Of a stretch of DNA of 64,000 nt, positions 3,124 through 63,201 are shown one piece after another. The translations under genes were made by a program, and so were the position numbers. Each line of letters opens with the position of its first letter. The first letter of the stretch is position 1. The notes under the pieces are model-generated. The model worked only from the letters and a program-made list of their open reading frames with translations. It made no database searches and had not been told where the DNA came from. The stretch comes from an uncultured Planctomycetia bacterium (lineage in GTDB: Bacteria; Omnitrophota; Gorgyraeia; CAYWPX01), in the NCBI GenBank assembly GCA_964460615.1, contig CAYWPX010000001.1, positions 120,073 through 184,072 on the forward strand. The letters run 5' to 3'.

Positions 3124-3202
3124 GCACACACTTCGGGATAATTCGCACCTATAACTTAGTTTCCCATCGGGTCACCTAAGTTATGTGCTCATTAAGGAAA
3201 TA

Positions 3203-4934: not shown

Positions 4935-5696
4935 ATGAATACTTGTCCGGTATGCAACAATTCGGTTTGGAAAATTATTTATAAGATTGATAAATGGGAT
5001 ATCAAGGTTTGCCCAACTTGCAAATTTTCTGTGATAGACCCTTTACCATCTGATGAAACAAGAAAAGATGATTATTCCAAAGACAAGGTCCTTGAAAGAA
5101 ATTTTAAAAAGAAAAACGTCTTCCAAAAGTTTTCTAGATTACTTAAGGGCACATTTGCTAGATTTACTAAGCGCAATAAAAGTAAAATATTTTTTGATAA
5201 TCTGGCCAAATCCCTTCCGGAGGGTTCCAAGGTGCTAGATATTGGATGCGGGGATGGAAGCTTTTTAAAGCTGGCTAGTTCAAGATTTATTTGTAGCGGC
5301 ATTGAAATATCCGAATACCTGGCTAATATTGCGAAGACTAATAAAGAGCTTAGGGTGATTACCGGAAATTTTCTTGAATTAGGGTTGGGTGAGGAAAAAT
5401 TTGACGGGATAACATTAATCTCATTGCTTGAACATATTTCCGATCCATCCGGGGCAATAACTAAATGTTTTGATTTATTGAATAATAACGGGATCCTGCT
5501 TTTAAAGACAGTCAACTTTAATTCATTAAACAGGATTATGAGGGGAAGGTCGTGGGTTGGATTTCGTCCGCCGGATCATGTGGTTTATTTTACTCCGGAA
5601 AACATCTCAATGCTATTAAAGAAAATCGGGTTTAAAAGTATCAAAGTGTCTTCATGGCCTTTAAATGACAGCATGTATATTAAAGCCATTAAGTAA
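4935..5696 (+). CDS. class I SAM-dependent methyltransferase with N-terminal CxxC...CxxC zinc-ribbon-like motif
   Basis: VLDIGCGDGSFL (motif I) plus LLLK motif; CPVCNN...CPTCKF at N-terminus. Confidence 0.75.
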   Translation: MNTCPVCNNSVWKIIYKIDKWDIKVCPTCKFSVIDPLPSDETRKDDYSKDKVLERNFKKKNVFQKFSRLLKGTFARFTKRNKSKIFFDNLAKSLPEGSKVLDIGCGDGSFLKLASSRFICSGIEISEYLANIAKTNKELRVITGNFLELGLGEEKFDGITLISLLEHISDPSGAITKCFDLLNNNGILLLKTVNFNSLNRIMRGRSWVGFRPPDHVVYFTPENISMLLKKIGFKSIKVSSWPLNDSMYIKAIK

Positions 5697-6884: not shown

Positions 6885-8267
6885 ATGGATAATTTATTTT
6901 CAATAATAAGATTGATCATAGGCCTAGGCCTGACAGTATTTATTGGTTACGTCTTATTAAGCGCGATCTTCAGGAAAAACCGTGAGGGCCTTAATTATTC
7001 GGAACGAATTTTTGTTTCATTCGGCCTTGGGATAATACTGCTTACTATGGAGCAGTTTTTTTATTCAATATTAAAGATCGAGTGGTCTATTTTTAACATT
7101 ATTGTTCCATGGGTAGCCTTATTTATTGCGAATTTATTTCTCACAAGAAATGAAGTTAAGGTTTTGAAAGCTGTTCCTAAGGAAAAAATAAGATTAAGCC
7201 TTTTAGAGAAGTTTTTGATATCCATTATTGTTATGGAGGTTATTTATGTGTTCTTCAAGGCATTCAGTTTCCCGCTCAGCGACTATGATGGATTGGCAAT
7301 ATACGGGATCAAAGCAAAATCTTTCTATTTAAATGGGACGGTTTTTACCGATATGTTCACCGAGAAGATTTTCATACCGGCCCATCCGGATTATCCTCTA
7401 CTTTTACCTTTAGCTGAAAGCTGGGTCTACATATTTCTCGGGAGTCTGAATGATTATCTGGTAAAGATATTGTTCCCGGTCTATTATGTAGGGCTTCTGG
7501 TCATATTTTTCAGTGTAATGTTAAATTTTTTCAAGAGGCGCGAGGCTATCCTTTTTACTTTTTTTGTTGCAACAGTTTCCCAGCTTAGGAATTTTGGTTA
7601 TTTCTGTTATGCGGAAATGCCTCTGATATTTTATTATACAGCCAGTTTTCTTTACCTATTCATGTGGATCAAGAAGGAAAAGTTATCTTTTCTTATACTC
7701 TCAGCCTTAATGGCATTTGGCGCTCTTTGGTCAAAGAACGAAGGAAGTTTGTTATTTCTGGTAAATCTGGCCGTTCTTTTGATAGCAATATTTGATAAAA
7801 AACTGAATTTAAAAAAAGCTTTGGTCTGTTTTTTCGCTTATTTAGTCACAGTAGTGGTACTATTTACGCCTTGGGTCATCGTAAAGACTTGTTTTAACCT
7901 CACTAATGATGTTATTAATAAAGATACCTTGAAAGTTTCTTTGATAGCCAGTAATCTTGATAGGATAGGGCCGATTTTGTATGAATACCAGAAACATATC
8001 TTCGGCCCGAAAAAATGGAATATTGTCTGGATACTGATTATCATGACATTTATACTTAAATTCAAAAATCTTCTTAAGCCGGATCAAAAATATTTTACGA
8101 TCGCACTTATTTTATGTTTTTTAGGTTATACAATGACCTATTTTATTACTCCGCAAAATCTGACATGGCATTTGTCAACCAGCGCCAGCAGGATCATCCT
8201 TCATTTTTTGCCGATAGGACTTTTCTGGGTAGCATTATGTACGAGAAAGGAATTAGATGATTTCTAG
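6885..8267 (+). CDS. polytopic membrane protein, possible GT-C-type glycosyltransferase
   Basis: 460 aa with about 10-12 hydrophobic segments; adjacent to a polyprenol-P sugar synthase as in ArnC/ArnT-like pairs. Family not confirmed. Confidence 0.55.
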   Translation: MDNLFSIIRLIIGLGLTVFIGYVLLSAIFRKNREGLNYSERIFVSFGLGIILLTMEQFFYSILKIEWSIFNIIVPWVALFIANLFLTRNEVKVLKAVPKEKIRLSLLEKFLISIIVMEVIYVFFKAFSFPLSDYDGLAIYGIKAKSFYLNGTVFTDMFTEKIFIPAHPDYPLLLPLAESWVYIFLGSLNDYLVKILFPVYYVGLLVIFFSVMLNFFKRREAILFTFFVATVSQLRNFGYFCYAEMPLIFYYTASFLYLFMWIKKEKLSFLILSALMAFGALWSKNEGSLLFLVNLAVLLIAIFDKKLNLKKALVCFFAYLVTVVVLFTPWVIVKTCFNLTNDVINKDTLKVSLIASNLDRIGPILYEYQKHIFGPKKWNIVWILIIMTFILKFKNLLKPDQKYFTIALILCFLGYTMTYFITPQNLTWHLSTSASRIILHFLPIGLFWVALCTRKELDDF

Positions 8268-8835: not shown

Positions 8836-9958
8836 GAAAATCTTTGTAATCCACGCTTCAGCCGGAGGCGGCCACAGGAAAGCTGCAACAAGTCTAATCA
8901 AGGCTTTTGAGGAGCTTGGCTTTAGGCATGATATCACTCTTATTGATTCGCTTGATTATACTAATAATTCTTTTAAGAAGTCCTATCAAAAAACATATCT
9001 ATTAGCCATACAGAAACTTCAGAATCTCTGGGGGTTTTTCTACTATCTCTTGGATAATGCGGTCTTTTACAAGTTTTTTGTATCATTTGCCAGGCGCATC
9101 GTTAATCAGCTGAATACCAAGCCTTTAAGGGACCTTATAATAAAAGAAAAGCCGGATCTGATCCTGTGTACGCATTTTCTTGCGCCAGAAGTTATTGGTA
9201 ATATGAAAAATAAGGGCCTGATAGACACGAAGCTTGTGACCGTGATCACGGATTTTAAGCCTCACACATTCTGGGTTCATAGCGGGATAGATTATTACAT
9301 AGTGGCCGATCAGTATACTAAAGACGAGCTGGTTAAAAGGGGCGTTTCCGGTGATAAGATCCTCGTATATGGCATACCTATCGAAAAGGCTTTTTCTATC
9401 GACTATGACAAAAATGAGCTTAGGCAAAAATTCGGGATGAAGGATATCTTTACTGTCCTTATCGGAAGCGGCGGTTGGGGCGTGGGGCCCATAGAAAAAC
9501 TGGTAGATATTTTAGGCCAAATGGACGAGGAATTACAGGTGATGGTTGTTTGCGGTGAGAATGATATTCTTTGTAATAACATATCAAGATACGCTTCAGA
9601 TTTTAAAAACTTCGTAAAGGTTTTCGGTTATGTCAATAACATGTATGAGCTTATGTCTATTGCTGATGTCATAGTGACTAAATCAGGCGGACTTACTACA
9701 TCTGAATCATTGGCCAAGGACCTTCCGATGATTATTATAGCCCCTATCCCTGGCCAGGAGACAAGGAATTGCGATTTTATATTAAATTCCAAAGCAGGTT
9801 TTAAGATCAATAATCCTGAAGACGTAAGAGATAGGATCAAAGAACTAATAAATTCCAAGGAGCTTTTGAATAAATTAAAAGATAATATTTCGAAGATAAG
9901 AAAACCCAATTCCAGCCTTGATATTGCAAGGTTCTGTTTAAAGTTAATAGGTAACTAA
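8828..9958 (+). CDS. MGDG-synthase-like glycosyltransferase (GT28-like, diacylglycerol glycosyltransferase family)
   Basis: MNKKIFVIHASAGGGHRKAATSL N-terminus typical of the MGDG synthase family; start set at second ATG 8828 with AAGGAG SD (track start 8798). Confidence 0.7.
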   Translation: MNKKIFVIHASAGGGHRKAATSLIKAFEELGFRHDITLIDSLDYTNNSFKKSYQKTYLLAIQKLQNLWGFFYYLLDNAVFYKFFVSFARRIVNQLNTKPLRDLIIKEKPDLILCTHFLAPEVIGNMKNKGLIDTKLVTVITDFKPHTFWVHSGIDYYIVADQYTKDELVKRGVSGDKILVYGIPIEKAFSIDYDKNELRQKFGMKDIFTVLIGSGGWGVGPIEKLVDILGQMDEELQVMVVCGENDILCNNISRYASDFKNFVKVFGYVNNMYELMSIADVIVTKSGGLTTSESLAKDLPMIIIAPIPGQETRNCDFILNSKAGFKINNPEDVRDRIKELINSKELLNKLKDNISKIRKPNSSLDIARFCLKLIGN

Positions 9959-27337: not shown

Positions 27338-27348
27338 TAAATTGGTAT

Positions 27349-27377
27349 AGGGTCAAGGGTTAAGGGATAAGCGGATA
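27349..27377 (+). repeat. heptad array (GGGTYAA-type) between the two ABC ATPase genes
   Basis: AGGGTCA AGGGTTA AGGGATA AGCGGATA; related TAGGGATAAGGGTTAG at about 61700. Confidence 0.6.
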
Positions 27378-30185: not shown

Positions 30186-30191
30186 TATAAT

Positions 30192-30256
30192 AGCTCATGG
30201 CTCGCAAGCTCATAGCTCATAGGTAAATTCCTAGAGCCCTGAACCTAGAGCCTGGG
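30192..30256 (+). repeat. heptad array (GCTCAT-type) plus duplicated CCTAGAGCC motif between the GNAT gene and leuC
   Basis: AGCTCATG GCTCGCA AGCTCATA GCTCATA; CCTAGAGCC-ctgaa-CCTAGAGCC. Confidence 0.7.
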
Positions 30257-30279
30257 GCAGTATTTAAGAGGGAATTAAA

Positions 30280-31545
30280 ATGGGATTTACGATAACAGAA
30301 AAAATACTTTTGAAGCATTCGGGTGTTAAAACGGTTACTCCCGGAGAGTTTATTTTAGCGGATGTTGATCTGGCACTTGGTAACGATATCACGGCACCCC
30401 TGGCTATAAAAGAATTTGAAGGGATGGGGTTAGGAAAGGTATTTGATAAAAATAAAATCGCATTAATACCCGACCATTTTACTCCCGCAAAGGATATGAA
30501 AAGCGCCAATCAGGCAAAGATCCTCAAGAATTTTGCCGATAGGTTTAAGATAAAGCACTACTATGAAGTGGGCAGGGTCGGCATAGAACATGCTTTTTTA
30601 CCCGAACAGGGAATAGTAATGCCCGGGGATCTCGTAATAGGGGCTGATTCACACACATGTACGTACGGTGCGCTCGGAGCTTTTTCTACCGGCGTGGGGT
30701 CTACGGACCTTGCGGCGGCAATGGCCACCGGCAAAGTCTGGTTTAAGGTCCCTGAGAGCATCAAATTTGTTTATACTGGAAAACTCAATAAATGGGTCGG
30801 AGGAAAAGACCTGATACTTTTTACGATAGGACAGATCGGCGTAGACGGAGCATTATATAAGGCGATGGAATTTACCGGGAACGCGATAAAAAAGCTTCCT
30901 ATGGACGATAGATTTGCCATGTGCAATATGGCGATTGAGGCCGGCGGGAAAAGCGGGATTATTGAGCCGGATGATATTACAGAAAACTATGTTTCGGCTA
31001 CATCAAAGATATCGAAAAGAAAATTTAAATTTTACTCCAGTGATAAAGATGCAAAGTATACCAAGGTTTATGAATACGATGTAAATAAGATGGAACCGCA
31101 GGTATCCTTGCCTCATTTACCTAGTAACGCGGTGCCGGTAAGCAAGGTAAAGAAATCGGTTGACCAGGTAGTGATAGGGTCTTGTACAAATGGCAGGATC
31201 TCAGATATACGGCTGGCTGCCAAAGTCCTTAAAGGAAAAAAGATTAACTCAAGAGTACGCCTTATTGTTATCCCTGCAACCCAGGCAGTATTCCAGCAGG
31301 CGATCAAAGAGGGGTTAGTCGATATATTTATCAATGCCGGCGGAGTATTCTCTACTCCGACTTGCGGGCCTTGTTTAGGCGGCCATATGGGAATATTGGC
31401 TGAAGGCGAAGTAGCCATAGCTACTACTAACAGGAACTTTGTTGGCAGAATGGGTAGTCTTAAAAGCGAAGTTATGCTCTCAAATCCGGCAGTCGCGGCT
31501 GCGTCTGCAATAACCGGAAAAGTTACACATCCTGATGAGATCTAA
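30280..31545 (+). CDS. leuC: 3-isopropylmalate dehydratase large subunit (short aconitase-X type)
   Basis: 421 aa; Cys ligands for 4Fe-4S ([15 protein letters not shown]); followed by LeuD-like small subunit. Confidence 0.85.
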
Positions 31546-31606
31546 TGGCAGAAGACAGAAAACAGAATTCAGAAGTTAGAAAAAACTAAAAAAATAAGAG
31601 ATAAAA

Positions 31607-33418: not shown

Positions 33419-33421
33419 ATT

Positions 33422-33450
33422 GTACGGCGTACGGAGTAAGGAGTACGGCG
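33422..33450 (+). repeat. heptad array (GTACGGC)x4 between leuB and asd
   Basis: GTACGGC GTACGGA GTAAGGA GTACGGC. Confidence 0.7.
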
Positions 33451-33479
33451 TTAATAGCTATTAATAAATTGGGTGAAAG

Positions 33480-34496: not shown

Positions 34497-35264
34497 ATGC
34501 ATAATATCAGGTTAACTATTGAGTATGATGGTACAGATTATTCTGGCTGGCAAGCTCAAAGAAGCGCAAATAGCAAATCGCAAATAGCAAATAAAGAAAT
34601 AAGAACCATACAGGGTACTATAGAAGAAGCTCTTTTAAAGATTCTGCAGGAAAAGGTAAATATTGTTGCCGCGGGAAGGACAGATAGCGGCGTTCACGCT
34701 GTTGGACAGGTGTGCAATTTTAGAACCAGTTCTAAAATTGCGCCTTTAAGCATAAAGAAGGCTCTTAATAGTGCCCTCCCTAAGGACATTTCAATTAAAA
34801 GCGCAGAGTATGTAGAACTTAAATTCAATTCCCAGATTGACGCCAAAAGTAAAATCTATAGATATAGGATACTCGCTCGTGATCACGGAGCTCCCTTATT
34901 AAGGAAGCAGACCTACAATTACAAGTTTCCTCTTGACCTTAAGCTGATGAAGAGTGAAGCCAAGGCGCTTCTGGGGAGGCACAATTTTAAATCTTTTCAG
35001 GCAAAAGATATAGTAGAAAGATTCCCAAGATGCAATGTAAAAAGCATTGTTATCACTAAGGAAGGGGATCTGATTAATATTGACATTGAGGCTGACAGGT
35101 TTCTCTACAATATGGTCAGGAATATTGTAGGTACCTTGCTGGAAGTGGGCAGGGGCTACTTTAAAAAAGGCTCTATGCATATCATTCTTAATAAGCTTGA
35201 TAGATCTTTAGCAGGGCCAACTGCACCCAGCCATGGATTAACGCTACTAAAAGTTAAATATTAA
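34497..35264 (+). CDS. truA: tRNA pseudouridine(38-40) synthase
   Basis: IEYDGTDYSGWQ, AAGRTDSGVHAVGQV catalytic Asp motif. Confidence 0.85.
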   Translation: MHNIRLTIEYDGTDYSGWQAQRSANSKSQIANKEIRTIQGTIEEALLKILQEKVNIVAAGRTDSGVHAVGQVCNFRTSSKIAPLSIKKALNSALPKDISIKSAEYVELKFNSQIDAKSKIYRYRILARDHGAPLLRKQTYNYKFPLDLKLMKSEAKALLGRHNFKSFQAKDIVERFPRCNVKSIVITKEGDLINIDIEADRFLYNMVRNIVGTLLEVGRGYFKKGSMHIILNKLDRSLAGPTAPSHGLTLLKVKY

Positions 35265-36216: not shown

Positions 36217-36244
36217 TCAGTAATTTTAGAAGCCTTACAAAAAG

Positions 36245-36296
36245 ACCTATTTTGTCAATACTCCGTCGAAAAAGAGTTGACAAAATAGGTTTTTTA
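36245..36296 (+). terminator. intrinsic terminator after rplM-rpsI
   Basis: Perfect 14-bp inverted repeat ACCTATTTTGTCAA...TTGACAAAATAGGT with 18-nt loop, followed by TTTTTT. Confidence 0.75.
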
Positions 36297-36355
36297 ATTT
36301 AAAATTAGTGTCTATGCTGTAGTGTAAATGGCAGATTATTTTATAGGAGAATAAA

Positions 36356-37396: not shown

Positions 37397-38596
37397 TTGG
37401 TGAAAGTAATTCAAGGCGGAGTTTGTGCGGCGAAAGGTTTTTTTGCTACAGGTATTAGCTCCGGTATCAAAAAAAGCGGTTTGGATTTGGCCTTAGTCTT
37501 TACTAAGTCTCCCGCCATTGCCGCTGGGACCTTTACCAAGAATATTGTTAAAGCAGCTCCTGTAGTTATATCCCAAAAAAGAATTAATAACACTGTTCAC
37601 GCTATTATTTCAAATAGCGGTAATGCCAATTGTTGTTCAGGGAAAAGCGGGATGGATTCGGTAATTAAGGAATCCGAAGCAATAGCCAAAGCTTTAGGTA
37701 TAAGCAAGGATTCGATTTTAGTATGCTCTACAGGGATCATCGGTAAACCTCTCCCGGTTGAAAAAATTGTAAATGCCGTACCTGAACTTGTTTCAAGCCT
37801 GGCTATTGATGGGAATGAGCTTGCCAAAAAGGCCATAATGACCACAGATACTTTTCCTAAAGAGGTTGCAGTTGAGATAAATATAGGCGGAAACGTTGTC
37901 AGGATCGGAGGCATGGCAAAGGGCGCTGGGATGATACACCCTGATATGGCTACAATGCTTTCTTTTGTGACTACCGACGCATTGATTGAAAAGACCGCTC
38001 TAAAAAAGGCGCTGAAGCTTGCGGTAGATAATTCATTTAATTCAATAACGGTTGATGGCGACACCAGTACCAATGATACGGTGTTGTTATTGGCCAATGG
38101 GCAGGCTGATAACAAAATAATTAAAATTGGCTCACCTCAATTCAAGGAATTTTTTAAAGCCTTGAATTTTGTAGCCGTTGAACTAGCGAAATTAATAGCA
38201 AAAGACGGTGAAGGAGCAACGAAGTTTGTAACAATAAATGTCTCTGGCGCCAAAACTGATGCTGAGGCCAGACGCATAGGCAGGTTCGTTTCGATATCAA
38301 ATCTTCTTAAGTGCGCCATTTACGGCCAGGACCCAAACTGGGGAAGGGTGGCGGCAAAAGCAGGTTCCAGCGGAGTTAAATTTGATATCAATAAACTTGA
38401 TATTTATATTGGCAGAGAATTGGTCCTTAGTAAGGGTACTTCCAATGATAAGGCCGATAAGTCCAGGCTAGAAGAGATATTTAGACAAAAAAATATAGAT
38501 ATTTCTATCAAGATCGGTAACGGCAAGGGCAAGGCGACATGTTACACATGCGATCTTACTGAAGAATATATCAAGATCAATGCGGCGTATGAATAA
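37397..38596 (+). CDS. argJ: bifunctional glutamate N-acetyltransferase / amino-acid acetyltransferase
   Basis: Autoprocessing site ATMLSF; 399 aa; TTG/GTG start after GGAGG. Confidence 0.9.
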   Translation: MVKVIQGGVCAAKGFFATGISSGIKKSGLDLALVFTKSPAIAAGTFTKNIVKAAPVVISQKRINNTVHAIISNSGNANCCSGKSGMDSVIKESEAIAKALGISKDSILVCSTGIIGKPLPVEKIVNAVPELVSSLAIDGNELAKKAIMTTDTFPKEVAVEINIGGNVVRIGGMAKGAGMIHPDMATMLSFVTTDALIEKTALKKALKLAVDNSFNSITVDGDTSTNDTVLLLANGQADNKIIKIGSPQFKEFFKALNFVAVELAKLIAKDGEGATKFVTINVSGAKTDAEARRIGRFVSISNLLKCAIYGQDPNWGRVAAKAGSSGVKFDINKLDIYIGRELVLSKGTSNDKADKSRLEEIFRQKNIDISIKIGNGKGKATCYTCDLTEEYIKINAAYE

Positions 38597-38602
38597 AAAC
38601 TA

Positions 38603-38676
38603 GCGATTAGGCGATTAAGTGATTAGGTAATTAGGTAAAACCCAATCACATAATCGCATAATTACCAAATCGCTAT
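38603..38676 (+). repeat. octad-periodic imperfect inverted repeat between argJ and argB
   Basis: GCGATTAG GCGATTAA GTGATTAG GTAATTAG ...loop... CAATCACA TAATCGCA TAATTACC AAATCGC (arms reverse-complementary at about 26 of 33 positions). Confidence 0.75.
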
Positions 38677-38693
38677 ATTATTAAAGGAAAAAA

Positions 38694-39530
38694 ATGGAAG
38701 AAGCGATAAAGAAGGCAGAGATACTTATTGAAGCTCTGCAATATATCAAAAAATTTCAGGACAAGATCGTAGTTATCAAATACGGCGGGTCAGCTATAGG
38801 CGACAGGGAAAAGCGTTTAAGTGTACTTGAAGATATAATTTTCATGAATCTCGCCGGAATGAAACCGGTTTTAGTACATGGCGGAGGCCCTGCTATCAAC
38901 AAAGAGATGGAAAAACTCGGCAAAAAACCTGAGTTTGTAAAAGGTTTTCGTGTTACTAAAAAAGAGAATATTGATATTATCGATAAGGTTCTCTCTAAGG
39001 TCAATGCTCAGGTGGTCCGCGATATAAATGGTTTAGGTGGTTCGGCCAAAGGGATGCTCGGAAGAAATGATATCGTAAGAGTTAAGAAGTTTAACAAATT
39101 CGGCGATATAGGTTTTGTAGGAGATATTACATCCATAAATATCCATAAGATCCTTAAGGAATTGGAAAAAGATAATATCCCCGTCATTACACCTCTGGGT
39201 CTGGGTAAGGATGGCAACTATTATAATGTAAACGCTGATCAGGTAGCGGCTAGCATAGCTGTTGCTTTACAGGCTGAAAAGCTTGCGCTTCTGACAAATG
39301 TCCCGGGTGTGTTAAAGAATAATGAGCTTGTACATACTCTCACAGTACCTCAGGCAAAAACTTTCATTAAAAAAGGCATTATTTACGGCGGAATGATCCC
39401 AAAGATCAAGGCTTGTATCACCGCAGTAAGCGGTGGCGCCAACAAGGCGCATATAATCAACGGAAACCTGAAGCATGCGTTGCTTCTGGAAATTTTTACC
39501 GATAAAGGTATCGGAACGGAGCTTGTATAA
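38694..39530 (+). CDS. argB: acetylglutamate kinase
   Basis: IVVIKYGGSA, VLVHGGGP motifs. Confidence 0.9.
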   Translation: MEEAIKKAEILIEALQYIKKFQDKIVVIKYGGSAIGDREKRLSVLEDIIFMNLAGMKPVLVHGGGPAINKEMEKLGKKPEFVKGFRVTKKENIDIIDKVLSKVNAQVVRDINGLGGSAKGMLGRNDIVRVKKFNKFGDIGFVGDITSINIHKILKELEKDNIPVITPLGLGKDGNYYNVNADQVAASIAVALQAEKLALLTNVPGVLKNNELVHTLTVPQAKTFIKKGIIYGGMIPKIKACITAVSGGANKAHIINGNLKHALLLEIFTDKGIGTELV

Positions 39531-40732: not shown

Positions 40733-41668
40733 ATGTGGAAGGATAAGCCAAAGAAAGACCTTATAAGGCTATTAGATCTTAGTAGCGATGATATTAACTA
40801 TATTTTCGATGTCACAGAGAAATTAAAGTGCAAAAAGATCGGCCTTGATGAGCCTTTAAAGAATAAAAACCTGGCGCTTATTTTTCAGAAACCTTCCAAC
40901 AGGACCAGGGTCTCCTTCGAAGTCGGTATGCATCAGCTTGGCGGTGATACGATATATCTGGGGCCGGAAGATATTAAGCTCGGCGTCAGGGAATCAAGCA
41001 AGGATATCGCAAAAGTTTTATCCAGGTACGTCGATGTTATTGTTGTAAGGACATTTTCCAATAAAGTTGTCGAAGAAATTGCCGAGTATTCTTCAATGCC
41101 GGTCATTAACGGCCTTAGCGATCTTTATCATCCCTGCCAGGGACTTGCTGATATATTTACGATAAAAGAAAAGTTCGGGTCATTTAAAAATATTCAAATT
41201 AGTTATGTTGGCGACGGGAATAATGTATTAAATTCTCTTATGGTTGGGGCAAGTATTCTAGGCCTAAATTTAAATATTGCTACACCAAAAAAATACGAAC
41301 CCAACAAGAACATTGTTAGTGATGCTATGGCAATAGCCAAAAAGACGGGAGCAAGTATTAAATTTTCCAATGACCCGGTTGAAGCGGTTAAAAATTCTGT
41401 AGTTATTTATACGGATGTCTGGACCAGCATGGGCCAGGAAAAGGAAGCCGCAAAAAGAAGGAAGGCGTTTAAGAGTTTTCAGATCAATGAGAAGCTTTTA
41501 AGCTGTGCCAAAAAGGAATGCTTGGTCATGCATTGTCTTCCGGCTCATAGGGGCGAAGAGATCACTGATGAGGTCATGGACGGGCCAAGTTCGATAGTTT
41601 TGGACCAGGCTGAAAACAGGCTCCATATACAGAAGGCGTTACTTTTAATATTACTTGGGAAAATATAG
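40733..41668 (+). CDS. argF: ornithine carbamoyltransferase
   Basis: STRTRVSFE carbamoyl-phosphate motif, HCLPA motif. Confidence 0.9.
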   Translation: MWKDKPKKDLIRLLDLSSDDINYIFDVTEKLKCKKIGLDEPLKNKNLALIFQKPSNRTRVSFEVGMHQLGGDTIYLGPEDIKLGVRESSKDIAKVLSRYVDVIVVRTFSNKVVEEIAEYSSMPVINGLSDLYHPCQGLADIFTIKEKFGSFKNIQISYVGDGNNVLNSLMVGASILGLNLNIATPKKYEPNKNIVSDAMAIAKKTGASIKFSNDPVEAVKNSVVIYTDVWTSMGQEKEAAKRRKAFKSFQINEKLLSCAKKECLVMHCLPAHRGEEITDEVMDGPSSIVLDQAENRLHIQKALLLILLGKI

Positions 41669-41737
41669 CTGTAAGCTATAAGTTGTAAGCCGTAAGAAGA
41701 TCCAAAGATTTAAAAGCTTATTGCTTAAAGCTTATAA
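41668..41737 (+). repeat. heptad-periodic imperfect inverted repeat between argF and argG
   Basis: GCTGTAA GCTATAA GTTGTAA GCCGTAA ... AAGCTTAT TGCTTAA AGCTTATA. Confidence 0.7.
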
Positions 41738-41759
41738 CATACTGCTTGAGAGGGGAAAA

Positions 41760-42929
41760 ATGAAAAAAGTTGTTCTAGCATATTCAGGGGGCCTTGATAC
41801 TTCCTGTGCGGTAAAATGGCTGAAGGATAGAGATTATTTCGTTATCTGCTATATGGCTGATGTCGGTCAGGGCGGTAATTTTAATGAGATAAAAAAACGT
41901 GCTTTTGCCGCGGGCGCTGATAAGGTAGTGATAGAGAGTTTGCAAAAAGAGTTTGTAGAGGATTTTGCGTTCGTTTCTTTAAAAGCTGGGGCAGTATATG
42001 AATCCAAGTATTTTTTGGCGACTGCGCTTTCGAGGCCTCTTATAGGTAAAGGCTTAGTGAATGTTGCCAGAAAAGAAAAAGCTCAGGCGGTATCTCATGG
42101 ATGCACCGGGAAAGGTAATGACCAGGTAAGGATCGAGACGTCCGTCATGTCTTTGGGCGGGGACCTTGAGATAATTGCTCCCGTACGAGTGTGGGAATTT
42201 AAGACCAGAAATGAAGAGATAGATTATGCGAAAAAACAGAATATCCCGATAGATGTGACCAAAAAAAGCCCATATAGTTTAGATAAGAACCTATGGGGAG
42301 TCAGTATCGAGTGCGGTATCTTAGAAGACCCTATGGTGGAACCTCCTAAGGATGCCTATCAATGGACAAATGACCCCAAAGACGCTCCCAATAAAGAGAC
42401 TTATATTGAAGTTACTTTTGAAAAAGGCATACCTATTAAGGTCAATGGTAAATCGCTTGAACCGGTCCAGTTGGTTGAAAAGCTTAATGAGATCGGCGGG
42501 CTTAATGGTGTAGGCAGATGTGACCTCGTAGAGAACAGGCTTGTAGGAATAAAATCCAGAGAGATCTATGAAGCCCCGGCTGCATATATTCTTCACACGG
42601 CATACGAAGCATTGGAGAATCTGGTTTTAGACAGAGAGACTTTTCATTTTAAAAAGAGTTTATCTTTAAAATATGCCGAGATGGTTTATTTTGGCCTGTG
42701 GTTTACACCGCTAAAAAGCGCCTTGGACAAATTTTTTGATGAAGTTGCTAAAAAGATTAGCGGAACTACAAGGCTCAAGCTGTATAAAGGAACGTGTGCT
42801 ATCGTAGGCAGGACTTCACCGAATTCACTTTATAAAAAAGATCTTGCTACTTATGACGAAGGCGATAAGTTTGACCAGTCATTTGCCGAAGGTTTTATAA
42901 GGATATGGGGATTGCCGTATAAGAAATAG
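41760..42929 (+). CDS. argG: argininosuccinate synthase
   Basis: AYSGGLDTS PP-loop; start at ATG 41760 (track 41721). Confidence 0.9.
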   Translation: MKKVVLAYSGGLDTSCAVKWLKDRDYFVICYMADVGQGGNFNEIKKRAFAAGADKVVIESLQKEFVEDFAFVSLKAGAVYESKYFLATALSRPLIGKGLVNVARKEKAQAVSHGCTGKGNDQVRIETSVMSLGGDLEIIAPVRVWEFKTRNEEIDYAKKQNIPIDVTKKSPYSLDKNLWGVSIECGILEDPMVEPPKDAYQWTNDPKDAPNKETYIEVTFEKGIPIKVNGKSLEPVQLVEKLNEIGGLNGVGRCDLVENRLVGIKSREIYEAPAAYILHTAYEALENLVLDRETFHFKKSLSLKYAEMVYFGLWFTPLKSALDKFFDEVAKKISGTTRLKLYKGTCAIVGRTSPNSLYKKDLATYDEGDKFDQSFAEGFIRIWGLPYKK

Positions 42930-42957
42930 TTCATGGTTCATGGCTCATAGTTCATAG
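42928..42957 (+). repeat. heptad array (GTTCATG-type) overlapping the argG stop codon
   Basis: GTTCATG GTTCATG GCTCATA GTTCATA. Confidence 0.7.
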
Positions 42958-43009
42958 TTTAAAAGAACTGTGGCCAAGCGCCTGGAGCAAAACGCGGGAG
43001 AAAAAATTT

Positions 43010-47437: not shown

Positions 47438-48241
47438 ATGCTTAATATCGTGGTAACCGGATGTATGGGCAGGATGGGAAAGCGTATAATATCACTTGCC
47501 AATTTTGATAAAGAAGTTGAAATAGTTGGTGCCATCGAAGCTCCTAAGCATACCTTTTTGGGTAAAGATATAGGTGAAGTTCTTGGTTTGGGAGTTTTAG
47601 ACATTAATGTTACCGATAAGCTTGAAAAATCCCTAAAAAAAGCCGATGTAATAATTGAATTTACTAATCCTCAGACTACTCTCAATGATCTTGAAATAGC
47701 TAAGAAAAACCGTGTTGGTATTGTTATCGGAACAACTGGTATGAAAGAGGATGAGATTACAAAGATTAAAGACGCCGCCAAGAAGATCCCAATAGTATTT
47801 TCTCCGAATATGAGCCTTGGGGTTAATCTTTTGTTCGAATTGGTAGAAGAGTGCGTAAAAAGGTTGGGCAAAGATTATGATATAGAGATCATTGAGTCTC
47901 ATCATAGATTTAAAAAAGACGCACCAAGCGGAACTGCCAAAGAATTTGCTCAGATAATTGCTAATACCATGAAAAAAGATTTATCTAAAGTAGCAACGTA
48001 CGGAAGAAGCGGTATTGTTGGCGAAAGGCCTGAAAATGAGATCGGTATCCATGCGATCCGAGGCGGAGATATTGTCGGTGAGCACAATATAATGTTCTGT
48101 GGGATGGGCGAGAGGATAGAGCTTATTCATAGAGCGCATTCAAGGGATTCATTTGCCCAGGGCGCAATAAGGGCTGCAAAGTTTTTACAGAATAAGAAAT
48201 CAGGGCTTTTTACAATGAAGGATGTTTTAAAAGCGAGCTAG
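47438..48241 (+). CDS. dapB: 4-hydroxy-tetrahydrodipicolinate reductase
   Basis: VVTGCMGRMG NAD(P) motif, ESHHRFKKDAPSGTA; start at ATG 47438 after GGAGGA (track 47411). Confidence 0.85.
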   Translation: MLNIVVTGCMGRMGKRIISLANFDKEVEIVGAIEAPKHTFLGKDIGEVLGLGVLDINVTDKLEKSLKKADVIIEFTNPQTTLNDLEIAKKNRVGIVIGTTGMKEDEITKIKDAAKKIPIVFSPNMSLGVNLLFELVEECVKRLGKDYDIEIIESHHRFKKDAPSGTAKEFAQIIANTMKKDLSKVATYGRSGIVGERPENEIGIHAIRGGDIVGEHNIMFCGMGERIELIHRAHSRDSFAQGAIRAAKFLQNKKSGLFTMKDVLKAS

Positions 48242-48245
48242 ATTT

Positions 48246-48292
48246 AGCTCATAGTTCATAGCTCATAGCTGATGGCTGCGAGCTGAAAGCTT
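48246..48292 (+). repeat. heptad array pair between dapB and dapL
   Basis: AGCTCAT AGTTCAT AGCTCAT AGCTGAT GGCTGCG AGCTGAA AGCTT, ending 11 nt before ATG 48304. Confidence 0.7.
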
Positions 48293-48303
48293 AAGGGAAA
48301 AAC

Positions 48304-54285: not shown

Positions 54286-54323
54286 TTATTAGACCTAAGC
54301 TATCAGCCTTTAGCGCGATCACT

Positions 54324-54491
54324 AGCACAAGAACACATGAGCACAAGACACAGGAGTACAAGTACACAAGATCACTCGTCGCAAGTTTAAAGCTTTTACC
54401 GGTGCTCTTGTGACTGGTGCTCTGGTGACAGCAACGTTGGAGCCCTGGTGTCCTAATTATGCTGATAGCTGATTTCTGAAAACTGAAAGCT
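54324..54491 (+). repeat. composite intergenic array: 8-nt CACAAG-type units, partly complementary GGTGCTC units, then GCTGAWA heptads abutting the start codon
   Basis: AGCACAAG AACACATG AGCACAAG ACACAGG AGTACAAG TACACAAG; GGTGCTC TTGTGAC TGGTGCT CTGGTGA; GCTGATA GCTGATT TCTGAAA ACTGAAA GCT. Confidence 0.7.
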
Positions 54492-54496
54492 AAAAA

Positions 54497-55648
54497 ATGG
54501 ATAAAGTTAGACTTATTGCTACATCGACATTCGGGCTGGAAGCTATGGTTAAGCGTGAGCTTAGCAATCTCGGCTTTTATGACACGACCGGTGCTGATGG
54601 AAGAGTGGAATTCGACGCTAACTTAGCTGATATCCCGCGTTTAAATATAAATCTAAGAACTGCCGATAGAGTACTCTTAAAAATAGGTGAATTTAAAGCA
54701 TTTGATTTCGGCGAGCTTTTTGACGGGACAAAGGTACTTCCCTGGGAAGATTGGATACCTAAGGACGGTAAGATAAATGTCAGCGGTAAATGTGTCAAAT
54801 CTACTCTAATGAGTGTGCGCAGCTGTCAGTCGATAGTCAAAAAAGCTATTGTCGATAGATTAAAAGATAAATTAAAGACTGATTTGCTTCCTGAGTCTGG
54901 CCTGGAGTTTGGTATTCAGGTAGCAATGCTGAAGGATGCGGCTTTACTTACGCTAGATACTTCCGGAGCAGGGTTACACAAACGCGGCTATCGAACAGAA
55001 TCCGGTGAAGTTCCTATGCGAGAAAATCTTGCAGCTGCACTTGTAATGCTAAGTTCCTGGAAAAAAGATAAATTGCTCATAGATCCTATGTGCGGCTCAG
55101 GGACCATCCTCATAGAAGCCGCTATGATAGCCCGGAATATTGCTCCCGGATTAAAGCGTAAATTTGCCTCCGAGGATTGGCCTAAGATTGAAAAAAAGTA
55201 TTGGGACGAGGCGCGTAAGGCCGCTCGAGAGGCCATTAAGACCGAGGGGGTTTTAAATATTCTAGGTTTCGATATAGATCCGGATAGGATAAGGGATTGT
55301 AAGATTAACGCCAAAAATGCCGGAGTAGATAAGGACATAGTTTTTGAGGAAAAAGATATCAGAGAACTAAGGATAGATAAGCCGTCCGGCTATATTATCT
55401 CCAATCCTCCGTATGGTGTTGAGATGGGGACATTAAAAGAGTTGACGCATTTATATATCCTGATCCACAATATGTTTCGAAAGAAACTCGGCTGGGCAGT
55501 TTATATAATAACCGCAGATAAAAGATTTCCGGATTTTTTTAAACGCGCTAAACCTGACAGGGTAAGGAAGCTATTTAACGGTGGCCTGGAGGTAAATTAT
55601 TATCAGTATTTTGCAAAAGAGATAGAAAAGAAGGCAACTAGCTCATAG
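54497..55648 (+). CDS. THUMP-domain class I SAM-dependent RNA methyltransferase (RlmL/COG0116-like)
   Basis: N-terminal THUMP-like region; methyltransferase motifs IDPMCGSGT and ISNPPYG. Confidence 0.8.
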   Translation: MDKVRLIATSTFGLEAMVKRELSNLGFYDTTGADGRVEFDANLADIPRLNINLRTADRVLLKIGEFKAFDFGELFDGTKVLPWEDWIPKDGKINVSGKCVKSTLMSVRSCQSIVKKAIVDRLKDKLKTDLLPESGLEFGIQVAMLKDAALLTLDTSGAGLHKRGYRTESGEVPMRENLAAALVMLSSWKKDKLLIDPMCGSGTILIEAAMIARNIAPGLKRKFASEDWPKIEKKYWDEARKAAREAIKTEGVLNILGFDIDPDRIRDCKINAKNAGVDKDIVFEEKDIRELRIDKPSGYIISNPPYGVEMGTLKELTHLYILIHNMFRKKLGWAVYIITADKRFPDFFKRAKPDRVRKLFNGGLEVNYYQYFAKEIEKKATSS

Positions 55649-55711
55649 CTCATTGCTCATAGTTCATAGTAAAAGCAATAACTGAAAGCTGATAGCTGAT
55701 AGCTGAAAGCT
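55640..55711 (+). repeat. heptad array pair: (AGCTCAT)x4 overlapping the stop codon, spacer, (GCTGAWA)x4
   Basis: AGCTCAT AGCTCAT TGCTCAT AGTTCAT ...17 nt... ACTGAAA GCTGATA GCTGATA GCTGAAA GCT. Confidence 0.75.
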
Positions 55712-55731
55712 AATTTGATAGGAAATAAAAA

Positions 55732-55986
55732 ATGTCAAAGATTAAACTGGATATGCATGATATATTTAATAAGTCCGAAGAGATTGAGTTGGAGCTTAAT
55801 AGGGTTATTGATGAAGCAATGCGAAAAAAGATCCAGCTTGTTGAGATAATCCCGGGTAAGGGGAGCGGCCAACTCAAAAAACATGTACTAAGATTTTTAC
55901 AAAATCCGGAAATCAAAAAACTATATCATCGCATAGAAAAAGACGATAAGAATTTTGGCAGGATCTTTGTGCATTTTAAGTTTTAA
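55732..55986 (+). CDS. Smr-domain protein
   Basis: 84 aa; LDMHD...IIPGKGSGQLKKHV matches the Smr LDLHG...HGKG pattern. Confidence 0.7.
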   Translation: MSKIKLDMHDIFNKSEEIELELNRVIDEAMRKKIQLVEIIPGKGSGQLKKHVLRFLQNPEIKKLYHRIEKDDKNFGRIFVHFKF

Positions 55987-55991
55987 GAGAA

Positions 55992-56064
55992 TGGCTCATG
56001 GTTCATAGCTCATTGCTCATAGTAAAAGCAAGAACTGAAGACTGTGAGCTGAAAGCTGAAAGCT
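55992..56064 (+). repeat. heptad array pair (GCTCAT-type then GCTGAA-type)
   Basis: GGCTCAT GGTTCAT AGCTCAT TGCTCAT ... GAGCTGAA AGCTGAA AGCT, ending 8 nt before ATG 56073. Confidence 0.75.
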
Positions 56065-56072
56065 AAAAAATA

Positions 56073-56765
56073 ATGACTAAAGAAATTCTATCCAAAGATA
56101 TACCAGCACCGAAGCTTATCAGATCCCGAAGGCGAAGCATCGCCTTGGAAGTCAGGCATGACGGCACCCTTGTAGTGAGGGCGCCGCATTTTCTTCCGGA
56201 TGCCCAAATACGAGAGTTTATTAGTAAGAGGCGCGCTTGGATAGATAATGTTTATAATCGTACACGTGAGAAGTTGCAATTATTTAAACCTAAGCAATTT
56301 GTTAATGGTGAGAAATTTCTTTATCTAGGCAATGAGTATACTCTGCATATAACCCAGGATATGGACGGTAAGTTTCTTTTTGAAAACCAATTTATACTTA
56401 ATGAACGGTATATAGCTAAAGCAAAAATACTCTTTGAGCGTTGGTATAGACAAGAGGCATTTATGCTTTTTACCAAAAGATGCAAATGCTATGCTCAATA
56501 TATGAGTGTAAGCTATAAAAGTATCAGTCTATCAAATGCCAAACACCGCTGGGGTTCATGCTATCCGAATGGAGGGCTTGGATTTAATTGGCGTTTAGTG
56601 ATGGCGCCGGAATGCATTATTGATTATGTAGTTGTGCATGAATTGGCGCATCTGGTTGAGGCCAATCACTCTAAACGGTTTTGGGCGCTAGTAGAAAAAA
56701 CGTTTCCAAATTATAAAGAAGCAAAGTTATGGCTAAGGGATAATCAACATAGGCTTAAGATATAA
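56073..56765 (+). CDS. YgjP-like M48-family metallopeptidase (DUF45/SprT-like, HExxH)
   Basis: HELAHLVEANHSKRFWALVE zinc motif; 230 aa. Confidence 0.8.
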   Translation: MTKEILSKDIPAPKLIRSRRRSIALEVRHDGTLVVRAPHFLPDAQIREFISKRRAWIDNVYNRTREKLQLFKPKQFVNGEKFLYLGNEYTLHITQDMDGKFLFENQFILNERYIAKAKILFERWYRQEAFMLFTKRCKCYAQYMSVSYKSISLSNAKHRWGSCYPNGGLGFNWRLVMAPECIIDYVVVHELAHLVEANHSKRFWALVEKTFPNYKEAKLWLRDNQHRLKI

Positions 56766-56880
56766 GCTCATAGCTCATGGTTCATAGCTCATACTAGAAA
56801 TAGTACGCAGTACACTGTACAAAGTACACAGTAAAAACATTACTTGTGTTCTGGTGACTGATAGCTGAAAGCTGACGACT
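56766..56880 (+). repeat. heptad arrays: (GCTCATA)x4, (AGTACAC)x5, GCTGA-type units
   Basis: GCTCATA GCTCATG GTTCATA GCTCATA; AGTACGC AGTACAC TGTACAA AGTACAC AGTAAAA; GATAGCT GAAAGCT GACGACT. Confidence 0.75.
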
Positions 56881-56912
56881 TCCGCCACAAAGCGTTGGCG
56901 GACAAGGATAGC
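56879..56912 (+). repeat. hairpin repeat element CTTCCGCCA-N8-TGGCGGACARG, copy 1
   Basis: Same ~35-nt element recurs at 59805-59839; rearranged variant at 59144-59191. Confidence 0.7.
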
Positions 56913-59200: not shown

Positions 59201-59788
59201 ATGAAAGTAATAGCATTTAACGGCAGCTCGCGAAAAGAAGGTAATACTGCAATTCTAATTAAGCTTGTGCTTAAGGAATTAGAGAAAGATGGTATCAAGA
59301 CTGAACTAGTGGAATTGGCCGGTGAAAAAATTCAAGGTTGCATTGCCTGTTACAAATGTGTTGCCAACAAAGATAAAAAATGCGCCATAAATGACGACAT
59401 AGTTAACGAGTGTATAGATAAAATGGATAAGGCGGATGGTATTATCATAGGTTCCCCTACATATTTTGCTGATTGCACTTCACAGACAAAGGCGCTTATT
59501 GAACGGGCTGGGTTTGTATCGAGAGCAAATGGAGGTATGTTTAAGCGTAAAATAGGTGCCGCAGTTGTATCTGTGAGGCGAGCTGGGGCGATACATGCTT
59601 TTAATAGTATAAATCACTTTTTTACAATAGGTGAGATGATAATAGTCGGGTCTAGCTACTGGAATATAGGTATAGGTAGAGAAATCGGCGATGTGGAAAA
59701 AGACGAAGAAGGTTTAAAGGTAATGAGTACACTTGGGAAGAATATGGCGTGGTTACTTAAGAAGATAGCTCCAGGCTCTGGGCTCTAG
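59201..59788 (+). CDS. flavodoxin-like NADPH-dependent FMN reductase / iron-sulfur flavoprotein family
   Basis: MKVIAFNGSSRKEGNT, GSPTYF flavin-binding motifs; Cys cluster CIACYKC...C; GGAGGA SD. Confidence 0.8.
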   Translation: MKVIAFNGSSRKEGNTAILIKLVLKELEKDGIKTELVELAGEKIQGCIACYKCVANKDKKCAINDDIVNECIDKMDKADGIIIGSPTYFADCTSQTKALIERAGFVSRANGGMFKRKIGAAVVSVRRAGAIHAFNSINHFFTIGEMIIVGSSYWNIGIGREIGDVEKDEEGLKVMSTLGKNMAWLLKKIAPGSGL

Positions 59789-59804
59789 GGAAAAAGCTCA
59801 TGGC

Positions 59805-59839
59805 TTCCGCCACAAAGCGTTGGCGGACAGGCATGGCGC
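59805..59839 (+). repeat. hairpin repeat element CTTCCGCCA-N8-TGGCGGACAGG, copy 2
   Basis: Same element as 56879-56912. Confidence 0.7.
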
Positions 59840-59978
59840 ATAGTAAAAATGAAGGACGATAGGCGAGGGATGAGAGGATAGTTTGGAGTTGGGAGCGAAA
59901 TCTATCTAAAGATAGATTTCAGGAGTTGGGAGTAAAAAAGTAAAAGAAAAAATGGGCGCCGTCCATATATATATCTAA

Positions 59979-62880: not shown

Positions 62881-63010
62881 GCTCAAGGCTCCAGGCTCTA
62901 GGGAAAAACAAAATACCGCTCCAGGTTCGGGGGTGAGTCCCCTTCGGCGAGGCTATGCTTCGCTTTGCACGGGTGAGAGGAAAACCTAGAGCTCTGAGCC
63001 TAGAGCCAAG
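62881..63010 (+). repeat. GC-rich structured intergenic element with long-range inverted repeat
   Basis: GGCTCCAGGCTCTAGGG ...~80 nt... CCTAGAGCTCTGAGCCTAGAGCC; internal GGGG-tgagt-CCCC hairpin; related motifs at 59769-59795 and 30230-30256. Confidence 0.55.
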
Positions 63011-63201
63011 AGCGGGTTTTGTGCTATATTAAATTGATGGAACAACAAAACCCTTTGTGTTATAATAAATGGTAACAGATTCGAGTAACACGGAAAGGGA
63101 ACAAGAAGCAATGGGTCTTTTTGGTAGCAAACAAAATAAAAGTATAAAGGTGAATTAATTTAAGCCGGGGATAAAATTCTCGGTTTTTTTGTTCAAAACT
63201 C

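Follow-up and report, generated by a model that had tools for sequence, protein, structure and literature searches.

The spacer between argJ and argB on a 64,000-nt stretch of an uncultured Omnitrophota genome (contig CAYWPX010000001.1, positions 120,073 to 184,072; henceforth the window) is 97 nt long (38597-38693), and 77% of it is taken up by a single 75-nt hairpin (38601-38675) made of four tandem octads, a short loop and an inverted array of the same unit. In our assessment this element is probably a repeat palindrome that was produced and reshaped by slippage and that has at most a generic effect of the type associated with repetitive extragenic palindromes (REP). The assessment draws on the structure itself, on membership of a class of period-7/8 arrays that is enriched in intergenic DNA, on the non-conservation of the hairpin among relatives, on a unit-step difference in a sister element, and on the lack of terminator or promoter features at the spacer.

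The 5' arm of the hairpin (38601-38636, plus strand, like all parts of the element described here) consists of the octads GCGATTAG (38603-38610), GCGATTAA (38611-38618), GTGATTAG (38619-38626) and GTAATTAG (38627-38634) followed by GGT. All four match GYRATTAR, and TA stands in front of them, so that the first unit also reads TAGCGAT. An apical loop AAA (38637-38639), closed by GGU/ACC and identical in the minimum-free-energy and centroid structures, leads into the 3' arm (38640-38675), which carries the inverted octads as ACC C AATCACAT AATCGCAT AATTACCA AATCGCT A; its reverse-complement units are GCGATTTG, GTAATTAT, GCGATTAT and GTGATTGG. Written out from 38600 to 38680, the letters are CTA GCGATTAG GCGATTAA GTGATTAG GTAATTAG GTAAAACC CAATCACA TAATCGCA TAATTACC AAATCGC TATATTA. 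Both arms were delimited by the predicted fold and by Tandem Repeats Finder, which detects period-8 repeats in each of them, at 38606-38638 (4.1 copies) and at 38644-38662 (2.4 copies). The arms have separate consensuses, GYRATTAG for the 5' arm and the reverse complement of GYRATTAT for the 3' arm. Single matches to GYRATTAR are scarcer in the window than expected by chance (13 found, 29 expected), and these four octads are the only consecutive ones on either strand (128 kb).

The RNA is predicted to fold into one ungapped helix of about 35 positions, in which 38601/2-38636 pair with 38640-38674/5 across the 3-nt loop, giving 29-30 base pairs (two of them G·U) interrupted by 1×1 mismatches only. 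The free energy is −27.3 kcal/mol (z −5.29) in a context of 111 nt and −25.9 kcal/mol (z −6.20) for the hairpin alone, and the same sequence also folds as single-stranded DNA (z −6.5 and −7.9). An earlier inspection of the letters alone (the sequence-only reading) had noticed an octad hairpin between argJ and argB, and its sequence and coordinates agree with ours. Structure prediction, which it had suggested as a check, returns a stable hairpin (z −5.3 to −6.2), with 0 of 200 dinucleotide shuffles at least as stable, and its estimate that the arms match at roughly 26 of 33 positions comes close to the 27 Watson-Crick and two G·U pairs counted over 35 positions. Its statement that the mismatches recur at the same position in each octad holds only in part. 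The mismatches (in order A·A, C·A, A·A, G·A, A·C and A·C, at 38609, 38612, 38618, 38626, 38629 and 38633) cluster near the unit boundary, but they fall at octad positions 7, 2, 8, 8, 3 and 7 rather than at one position throughout. Strictly periodic internal loops do occur in heptamer hairpins of the same class, for example at 55639-55713. To call the element the clearest example of a periodic inverted-repeat class is fair, as it has the best z-score among the periodic hairpins of the window that were tested; it is at the same time atypical of that class in having period 8 and in being present as a single copy.

The class is strongly concentrated in spacers. Period-7/8 arrays number 20 in the 5.9 kb of intergenic DNA and seven in the 58 kb of coding DNA, that is, 3.4 versus 0.12 per kb (28-fold), and shuffled spacers yield 0.45 arrays (maximum 3) against the 20 observed. 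The period spectrum of the intergenic arrays peaks at 7 (15 arrays), followed by 8 (three arrays). Under a stricter array definition, 11 period-7 arrays are found in the 64 kb of the window versus nine in 851 kb of control sequence from 78 non-Omnitrophota loci. Many arrays are succeeded by a second one, inverted or complementary in part, with which they form periodic hairpins, as at 30190-30262, 41664-41745 (argF-argG, AGCTGTA units), 42926-42992 (argG-argH), 48235-48297, 55639-55713 and 55991-56068. TAGCTCA, with its variants, is the most frequent unit, and the units are diverse, including GCGATTAG, TAGCTCA, AGCTGTA, GTACGGC, AGGGTTA, CAGAAGA and AGCACAAG. Hairpins of the class separate genes that are unrelated to one another and whose products include a YgjP-like peptidase, an RlmL-like methyltransferase and a stand-alone Smr protein. 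Some members form a dispersed multi-copy family: the hairpins at 55639-55713 and 55991-56068 are 87% identical, loop included, and the 3' arms at 30190 and 62881 agree at 21 of 23 positions. The octad element, on the other hand, is present once in the 64 kb and is absent from the 96 other loci compared.

To place the junction in a wider context, arg operons from nine other Omnitrophota lineages were compared with that of the window, whose closest ArgB homologues are named Candidatus Omnitrophica/Omnitrophota and for whose ArgJ a scan of GTDB species representatives gave no match above 50% identity. The core order argB-argD-argF-argG is common to all nine, and longer contigs show rplM-rpsI-argCJBDFGH-lysA-dapF-dapA-dapB. 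In a neighbour-joining tree of concatenated ArgB, ArgD, ArgF and ArgG, the window groups with L081 (clade I; 81% identity, 82% for ArgB alone), L210, L084 and L083 form clade II (about 75% identity), L086, L088, L211 and L213 form clade III (77-81%), and L215 stands alone, with between-clade identity at about 62%. Against this background the argJ-argB spacer varies widely. It measures 29 nt and is devoid of a hairpin in L081, which has the same gene order as the window, and it is reduced to 10, 15, 3, 7 and 4 nt, with no hairpin, in L083, L084, L088, L211 and L213, respectively. In L215 it is 66 nt long and contains a GC-rich hairpin that is not periodic, in L086 it is 76 nt with a period-7 hairpin (TAGCGNN / CTATACG), and in L210 it extends over at least 194 nt with TTAGCGN heptads and GAGCACAG octads. 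The length of exactly 97 nt in the window is secured by alignment with relatives, which fixes both the argJ stop and the argB start. The octad hairpin is thus not conserved and fast-changing.

That a functional structure would be detectable at these distances is illustrated by the rpsI-argC spacer of the same operon, where a hairpin is conserved. Here, a perfect-stem terminator is followed by a T-run, and the 3' arm of its stem holds the argC promoter element TTGACA, with TAAAAT 17 nt further on. The position of this composite is kept in six of six loci and its sequence in four of the six, namely the window (36237-36305), L081 (about 5325-5400), L215 (about 7490-7560) and L084. The argJ-argB hairpin shows no such conservation.

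These comparisons bear on the suggestion, made in the sequence-only reading, that the element is a processing or attenuation site that uncouples argCJ from argBDFGH. A dedicated control element of this kind, for instance an RNase III or RNase E site or a leaky attenuator selected for the argCJ to argBDFGH ratio, would find the position of the helix convenient: about 30 bp long and of RNase III size, it lies exactly between the argJ stop and the argB ribosome-binding site, with an A/U-rich single-stranded linker just 3' of it. L086 likewise has a hairpin at this junction, and the tail of the element, ATATTATT, contains 5 T in 8 nt. We nevertheless consider arginine-specific control quite unlikely, given that neither the nearest relative nor five further arg operons of Omnitrophota have the hairpin, whereas the one upstream of argC is conserved, that hairpins of the same class lie between unrelated genes, that there is no contiguous T-run, terminator call, leader peptide or alternative structure, and that the antisense strand folds better than the sense strand. 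The claim of an arg-specific site is therefore not supported; uncoupling in a generic, weak sense may be true, only not by way of a site dedicated to the arginine genes.

The terminator and promoter tests were uniformly negative at the spacer. The tail ATATTATT lacks a contiguous T-run, no U-tract was found on the 3' side of the stem (tail AUAUUAUU), and a terminator scan returned nothing at 38600-38690. The canonical terminators of this genome (36237-36300, 53519-53578 and 57790-57825) are clear cases of perfect stems followed by T6-7, and an intrinsic terminator was rejected on these grounds. An internal argB promoter was likewise rejected, there being no promoter-like site in the spacer. 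Neither an antiterminator-type alternative structure nor a leader peptide was found there; the spacer has a single dominant hairpin with coinciding centroid and minimum-free-energy structures.

With regard to strand, the more stable fold is that of the minus strand (−34.1 kcal/mol, z −8.3, versus −27.3 kcal/mol for the plus strand), since G·U pairs replace three A·C mismatches in the antisense. This stronger fold, and the hairpin predicted for single-stranded DNA, would suit an antisense RNA or a DNA-level role as a cruciform or replication pause site, yet such roles are highly improbable. As many as 67 of the 69 open reading frames (ORFs) called in the window are on the plus strand, there is no good minus-strand promoter upstream (the nearest promoter-like site, about 300 nt off, scores 10/12), and over 11 hairpins no strand is consistently preferred, G·U pairs numbering 28 in the sense and 23 in the antisense; at the DNA level, the mismatches make cruciform extrusion unlikely. 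Selection on the sense-strand RNA, sought as an asymmetry between G·U and A·C, gave no signal either, and the target itself favours the antisense.

How the hairpin came to lie in this spacer is suggested by the alignment with L081, in which the flanks are conserved and the window carries about 68 extra nt. Opposite the first unit of the window, TAGCGATTAGG, the L081 spacer has TAGCTTATAGG, which is compatible with amplification of a native seed in situ. Insertion of a non-autonomous mobile element, similar to a miniature inverted-repeat transposable element (MITE) or a REP, would equally make L081 an empty site, and other periodic hairpins of the window do occur as dispersed copies that share loops, while small hairpin elements are nested inside arrays. 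Such an origin is very unlikely for the octad hairpin all the same, since neither the window nor any Omnitrophota locus compared has a second copy, no clear target-site duplication borders the extra sequence, and the first unit resembles the native L081 spacer. Moreover, the ten ORFs in the most repeat-rich part of the window (53-60.5 kb) include no transposase-type domain, and the internal tandem structure of the element points to local amplification.

A unit-step change was observed in a sister element. Loci L086 and L087, which come from two samples, are 99.7% identical over 14.3 kb. Between them there are 29 substitutions and only one internal indel, which measures exactly one heptamer (TAGCGTA) and lies in the 5' arm of the hairpin at argF-argG (L086 6430-6436). 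The units at argF-argG themselves differ by lineage: AGCTGTA in the window, GTGAATA (also as a hairpin) in L081 and TAGCGTA in L086, which in addition to its TAGCGNN hairpin at argJ-argB has others at argF-argG and argG-argH. In the octad hairpin, registers shifted by one octad pair nearly as well as the predicted one, a situation that favours slipped intermediates. Slippage in unit steps would fit the separate consensuses of the two arms, the turnover at the junctions and the one-heptamer indel.

From these observations we infer the following course of events. An 8-nt unit would have been amplified head to tail beside an inverted array of the same unit, resulting in a quasi-continuous helix of about 35 positions. 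Replication slippage would both make such arrays and remodel them in unit steps, and they would be gained and lost quickly relative to the surrounding genes. Arrays of the class occupy the spacers of co-directional genes in this Omnitrophota lineage and, with a patchy distribution, in related ones. A hairpin would be tolerated at junctions whose downstream gene can rely on a ribosome-binding site of its own, in this case AAGGA at 38684-38688.

Several observations weigh against slippage as the whole explanation. The window and L086 bear periodic hairpins at the same three junctions (argJ-argB, argF-argG and argG-argH), a recurrence that could reflect selection or a dedicated spreading mechanism instead of neutral slippage. 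In the same vein, L086 and L210, which belong to different clades and have ArgB proteins only 61% identical, share TTAGCGN at argJ-argB and G[TA]CACCAN at argG-argH, while nearer relatives of each have compact junctions; such common unit families, too, could result from selection or from dedicated spreading. Slippage alone fails to explain multi-copy hairpins with a shared loop, such as the 87% identical pair at 55639 and 55991, and it leaves the polarity of related hairpins in metagenomes, described below, unaccounted for. Among the loci compared, no strain is close enough to display polymorphism in the target, the nearest standing at 81% protein identity, and the copy-number difference between L086 and L087 comes from short-read assemblies and concerns an element other than the target.

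Stretches of three or more tandem GYRATTAR units are found at least 120 times in metagenomes, almost always in intergenic positions; as this abundance was counted without a scrambled-unit baseline, it is no measure of the unit being special. Among the matches listed (loci L090-L209), the contigs span 17-69% G+C and for about one third of the stretches an inverted partner array lies no more than 140 nt away. Many of these partnered arrays give long periodic hairpins; in some the stem is perfect over 30 bp, and others carry inner inserts. Again among the matches listed, 35 GYRATTAR arrays have the partner on their 3' side and seven on their 5' side, and away from contig ends the arrangement 5'-(GYRATTAR)n-loop-(YTAATYRC)n-3' prevails by 30 to 5. 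Since each arrangement is its own reverse complement, this polarity cannot stem from the replication or transcription strand. Self-pairing of a single G/T-rich arm was rejected as its cause, each arm alone having a folding energy of 0 kcal/mol as DNA. For loci L090-L169, tblastx against the window was uninformative as to taxon.

In a sequence-specific explanation, the unit (GYRATTAR here, TAGCNNN and others elsewhere) would bind a trans-acting RNA- or DNA-binding protein or the ribosome, and the hairpin of fixed polarity would be the functional form, for example as an insulator that keeps Rho away from the C-rich arm or sequesters repeated motifs. The 30 to 5 preference for (GYRATTAR)n first among the matches listed, the recurrence of one and the same AT-rich unit as arrays and hairpins in contigs of 19-65% G+C, and the unit families common to Omnitrophota clades at the same junctions all speak for it. 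We consider this explanation unlikely: units vary so widely within one genome that no single binder explains them, the octad is present once in the 64 kb and absent from the 96 other loci compared, the abundance of GYRATTAR lacks a baseline, and no candidate protein was identified. Resemblances of units to a Shine-Dalgarno sequence (AGGTGAT), a DnaA box (TTATCCAC, L127) and an ARG box (TGAATA, L081) were seen by eye only and do not generalize across units. A broader proposal, that the periodic hairpins as a whole are a selected, polarity-constrained intercistronic class and not slippage debris, has in our view a small but appreciable chance of being right; it draws on the units that recur across deeply separated Omnitrophota clades at the same junctions, on GYRATTAR arrays and hairpins in genomes of 19-65% G+C and on the polarity. 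If it were true, it would imply a trans-acting partner, a dedicated generating or spreading mechanism (for example templated or mobile), or selection that keeps a C-rich arm out of reach of Rho.

The element belongs to a known category. Two papers report that long repeats with units of 5-11 nt, especially heptamers, occur in excess in certain bacterial genomes and ascribe them to slippage (PMC4679880, PMC4692102, citing Mrazek 2007); the examples given there include the cyanobacterial short tandemly repeated repetitive (STRR) heptamers, the GGGAATC-type repeats of Xanthomonas and Nostoc, and TAACTGA in Beggiatoaceae (PMC4679880, PMC4692102). In Xanthomonas, some GGGAATC arrays form inverted pairs capable of folding into stem-loops (PMC4692102). 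The target falls within the definition of a long simple sequence repeat, which requires a unit of 5-11 nt, and it shares with that category head-to-tail units of 7-8 nt, an intergenic location and lineage-specific abundance; length variation between close relatives, another mark of the category, was seen in the sister element of L086 and L087. It differs from the strictly heptameric STRR in its 8-nt unit and in the way array and inverted array form one long hairpin, and from known long simple sequence repeats in that many different units coexist in one genome and in that its host belongs to the Omnitrophota. Our literature search found no description of such repeats in Omnitrophota, nor of GTGATTAR octad arrays or hairpins.

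While the inverted GGGAATC arrays of Xanthomonas are one structural precedent, the nearest is the P6b stem of the trnL(UAA) group I intron of Nostoc, which is composed of degenerate 7-nt repeats (TDNGATT or NNTGAGT) on both arms, varies in length as complete units are gained or lost, in some cases on both arms, and has seen one repeat class repeatedly replaced by another and side stem-loops inserted into the stem (PMC4476775). The GATT core of these repeats resembles GYRATTAR. P6b differs, however, in having period 7 and in lying inside a self-splicing intron and not between cistrons. REP sequences of enterobacteria and pseudomonads, in turn, are 20-40 nt long, have no internal periodicity, occur in more than 100 near-identical copies and are linked to REP-associated tyrosine transposases (RAYT) (PMC2817692). 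With REP and bacterial interspersed mosaic elements (BIME), the target shares the character of an imperfect palindrome between co-transcribed genes that is dispensable and non-conserved between relatives, and the effect of REP on mRNA stability is a generic one. It is unlike them in its 75-nt length, its internal tandem structure and its single occurrence in the window and the 96 other loci. The REP between malE and malF is the paradigm of an mRNA stabilizer. Finally, a transcript stem-loop with a GC-rich stem base (GCG/CGC) recalls intrinsic terminators and attenuators, from which the target is set apart by the missing contiguous U-tract and by a long stem punctuated by mismatches.

Turning to the genes on either side, argJ occupies 37397-38596 on the plus strand (NCBIfam NF003802, E=1.1e-148); its called TTG start is uncertain, and its TAA stop (38594-38596) follows a C-terminus, ...AAYE*, that aligns with L081. 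Downstream, argB occupies 38694-39530, also on the plus strand (TIGR00761, E=4.3e-64), and its start, ATG GAA GAA GCG ATA, is kept in L081, L083, L084 and others. A Shine-Dalgarno-like AAGGA ends 5 nt before this ATG and is unpaired in the predicted fold; it lies in the A/U-rich linker (38676-38693), which is unpaired in the minimum-free-energy structure and where the argB-side end of the spacer aligns with that of L081. By NCBIfam, the operon order is argC-argJ-argB-argD-argF-argG-argH, preceded by asd, truA and rplM, with rpsI just upstream of argC in homologous loci, so that the location of the spacer within a biosynthetic operon, as given in the sequence-only reading, is borne out. No ORF of at least 60 aa begins inside the spacer. 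The window has a G+C content of 40%; a scan found no tRNA or tmRNA gene in it, and Rfam gave no match in the window at gathering thresholds and chance-level matches only at 38500-38800 with E up to 10.

Other repeats of the window and its relatives are recorded here in their own right. An 84-aa stand-alone Smr-domain ORF (55732-55986) sits between the two copies at 55639-55713 and 55991-56068. At 62881-63013, the place of a short loop between heptamer stems (GCTCAAG GCTCCAG GCTCTAG ... CCTAGAGCTCTGAGCCTAGAGCC) is taken by a structured, GC-rich insert of about 70 nt (62915-62985); this insert, for which Rfam has no match at the gathering threshold, could be a small RNA or a nested element. Nested arrays occur at 56764-56905 and 59768-59850, with TAGCTCA units followed by an AGTACAC array and then AGCTGAA units. 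Heptamer arrays also surround both copies of a 25-nt hairpin, CTTCCGCCACAAAGCGTTGGCGGAC (about 56879-56903 and 59806-59830), which recalls the small dispersed repeats inserted into heptamer arrays of Nostoc. A second octad family occupies the 211-nt spacer 54286-54496, with AGCACAAG/AACACATG arrays and their partner GGTGCTCTTGTGAC; the GAGCACAG octads of the L210 argJ-argB spacer (L210 1-194) are similar to it, and GTCACCAA/TTGGTGAC octads are present at argG-argH in both L086 (7703-7802) and L210. Heptamer arrays with no inverted partner lie at 27344-27373, 31545-31576, 33421-33451 and 34562-34595 (AGGGTTA, CAGAAGA, GTACGGC and GCAAATA, respectively), the GCAAATA array falling inside the called truA ORF, so that either the true start is further downstream or the array is translated. 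A shared apical-loop motif (TAGGTAAAA/ATAGTAAAA) was considered and rejected, as it shows no excess beyond the copies of one family (2 versus 3.2 expected; 5 versus 1.7).

Among the metagenome loci, L127 has two hairpins (8051-8120 and 9858-9935) with a period-8 5' arm (GTGATTAA), a period-7 3' arm (TAACCAC) and one bulge per unit; both are followed by a T7-8 run and look like terminators, and the L127 hairpin loop, GTAAAACC, resembles that of the target. Further REP-like hairpin families, which are not periodic, were seen in L081 (4149-4364, 4794-4899 and 5296-5544), in the window (about 3130-3187) and in L083 (8470-8526 and 13920-13975). They are of the types 'ATTAATTCG + stem' and 'GGACGTGCCAAAGTGG...', some of them lying at argC-argJ and argG-argH of L083.

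In the argCJBDFGH mRNA, the hairpin would form a helix of about 30 bp starting 5 nt past the argJ stop and leave the argB ribosome-binding site free. Following cleavage in the linker, it would shield the upstream segment from 3' exonucleases. The predicted helix is long enough for RNase III (at least 20 bp, about two turns of coaxial double-stranded RNA) and might serve as an entry site for this enzyme, and the argCJ and argB-H segments could then differ in stability. In addition, the hairpin would end the coupling of argJ and argB by termination and reinitiation that relatives with spacers of 3-15 nt must have. A generic effect on mRNA decay or processing and on argJ-argB translational coupling is thus plausible, to judge from the predicted structure.

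For the annotation of this operon, the label of an arginine-specific attenuator or processing signal should not be given to the hairpin, since relatives both near and far have the same operon with a junction of only 3-29 nt. As a feature of the arg operon it is ordinary, and its interest, which is modest, lies in the polarity, the shared unit families and the nested elements of its class. In metagenome-assembled genomes, periodic arrays of this kind can mislead a search for terminators or structured RNAs, and they are hotspots of assembly error and strain variation. Some Omnitrophota, like heterocystous cyanobacteria, Xanthomonas and Beggiatoaceae, load their intercistronic spacers with arrays of 7-8-nt units that often pair into hairpins, and the class raises the questions of why one polarity dominates and why unit families are common to separate clades.

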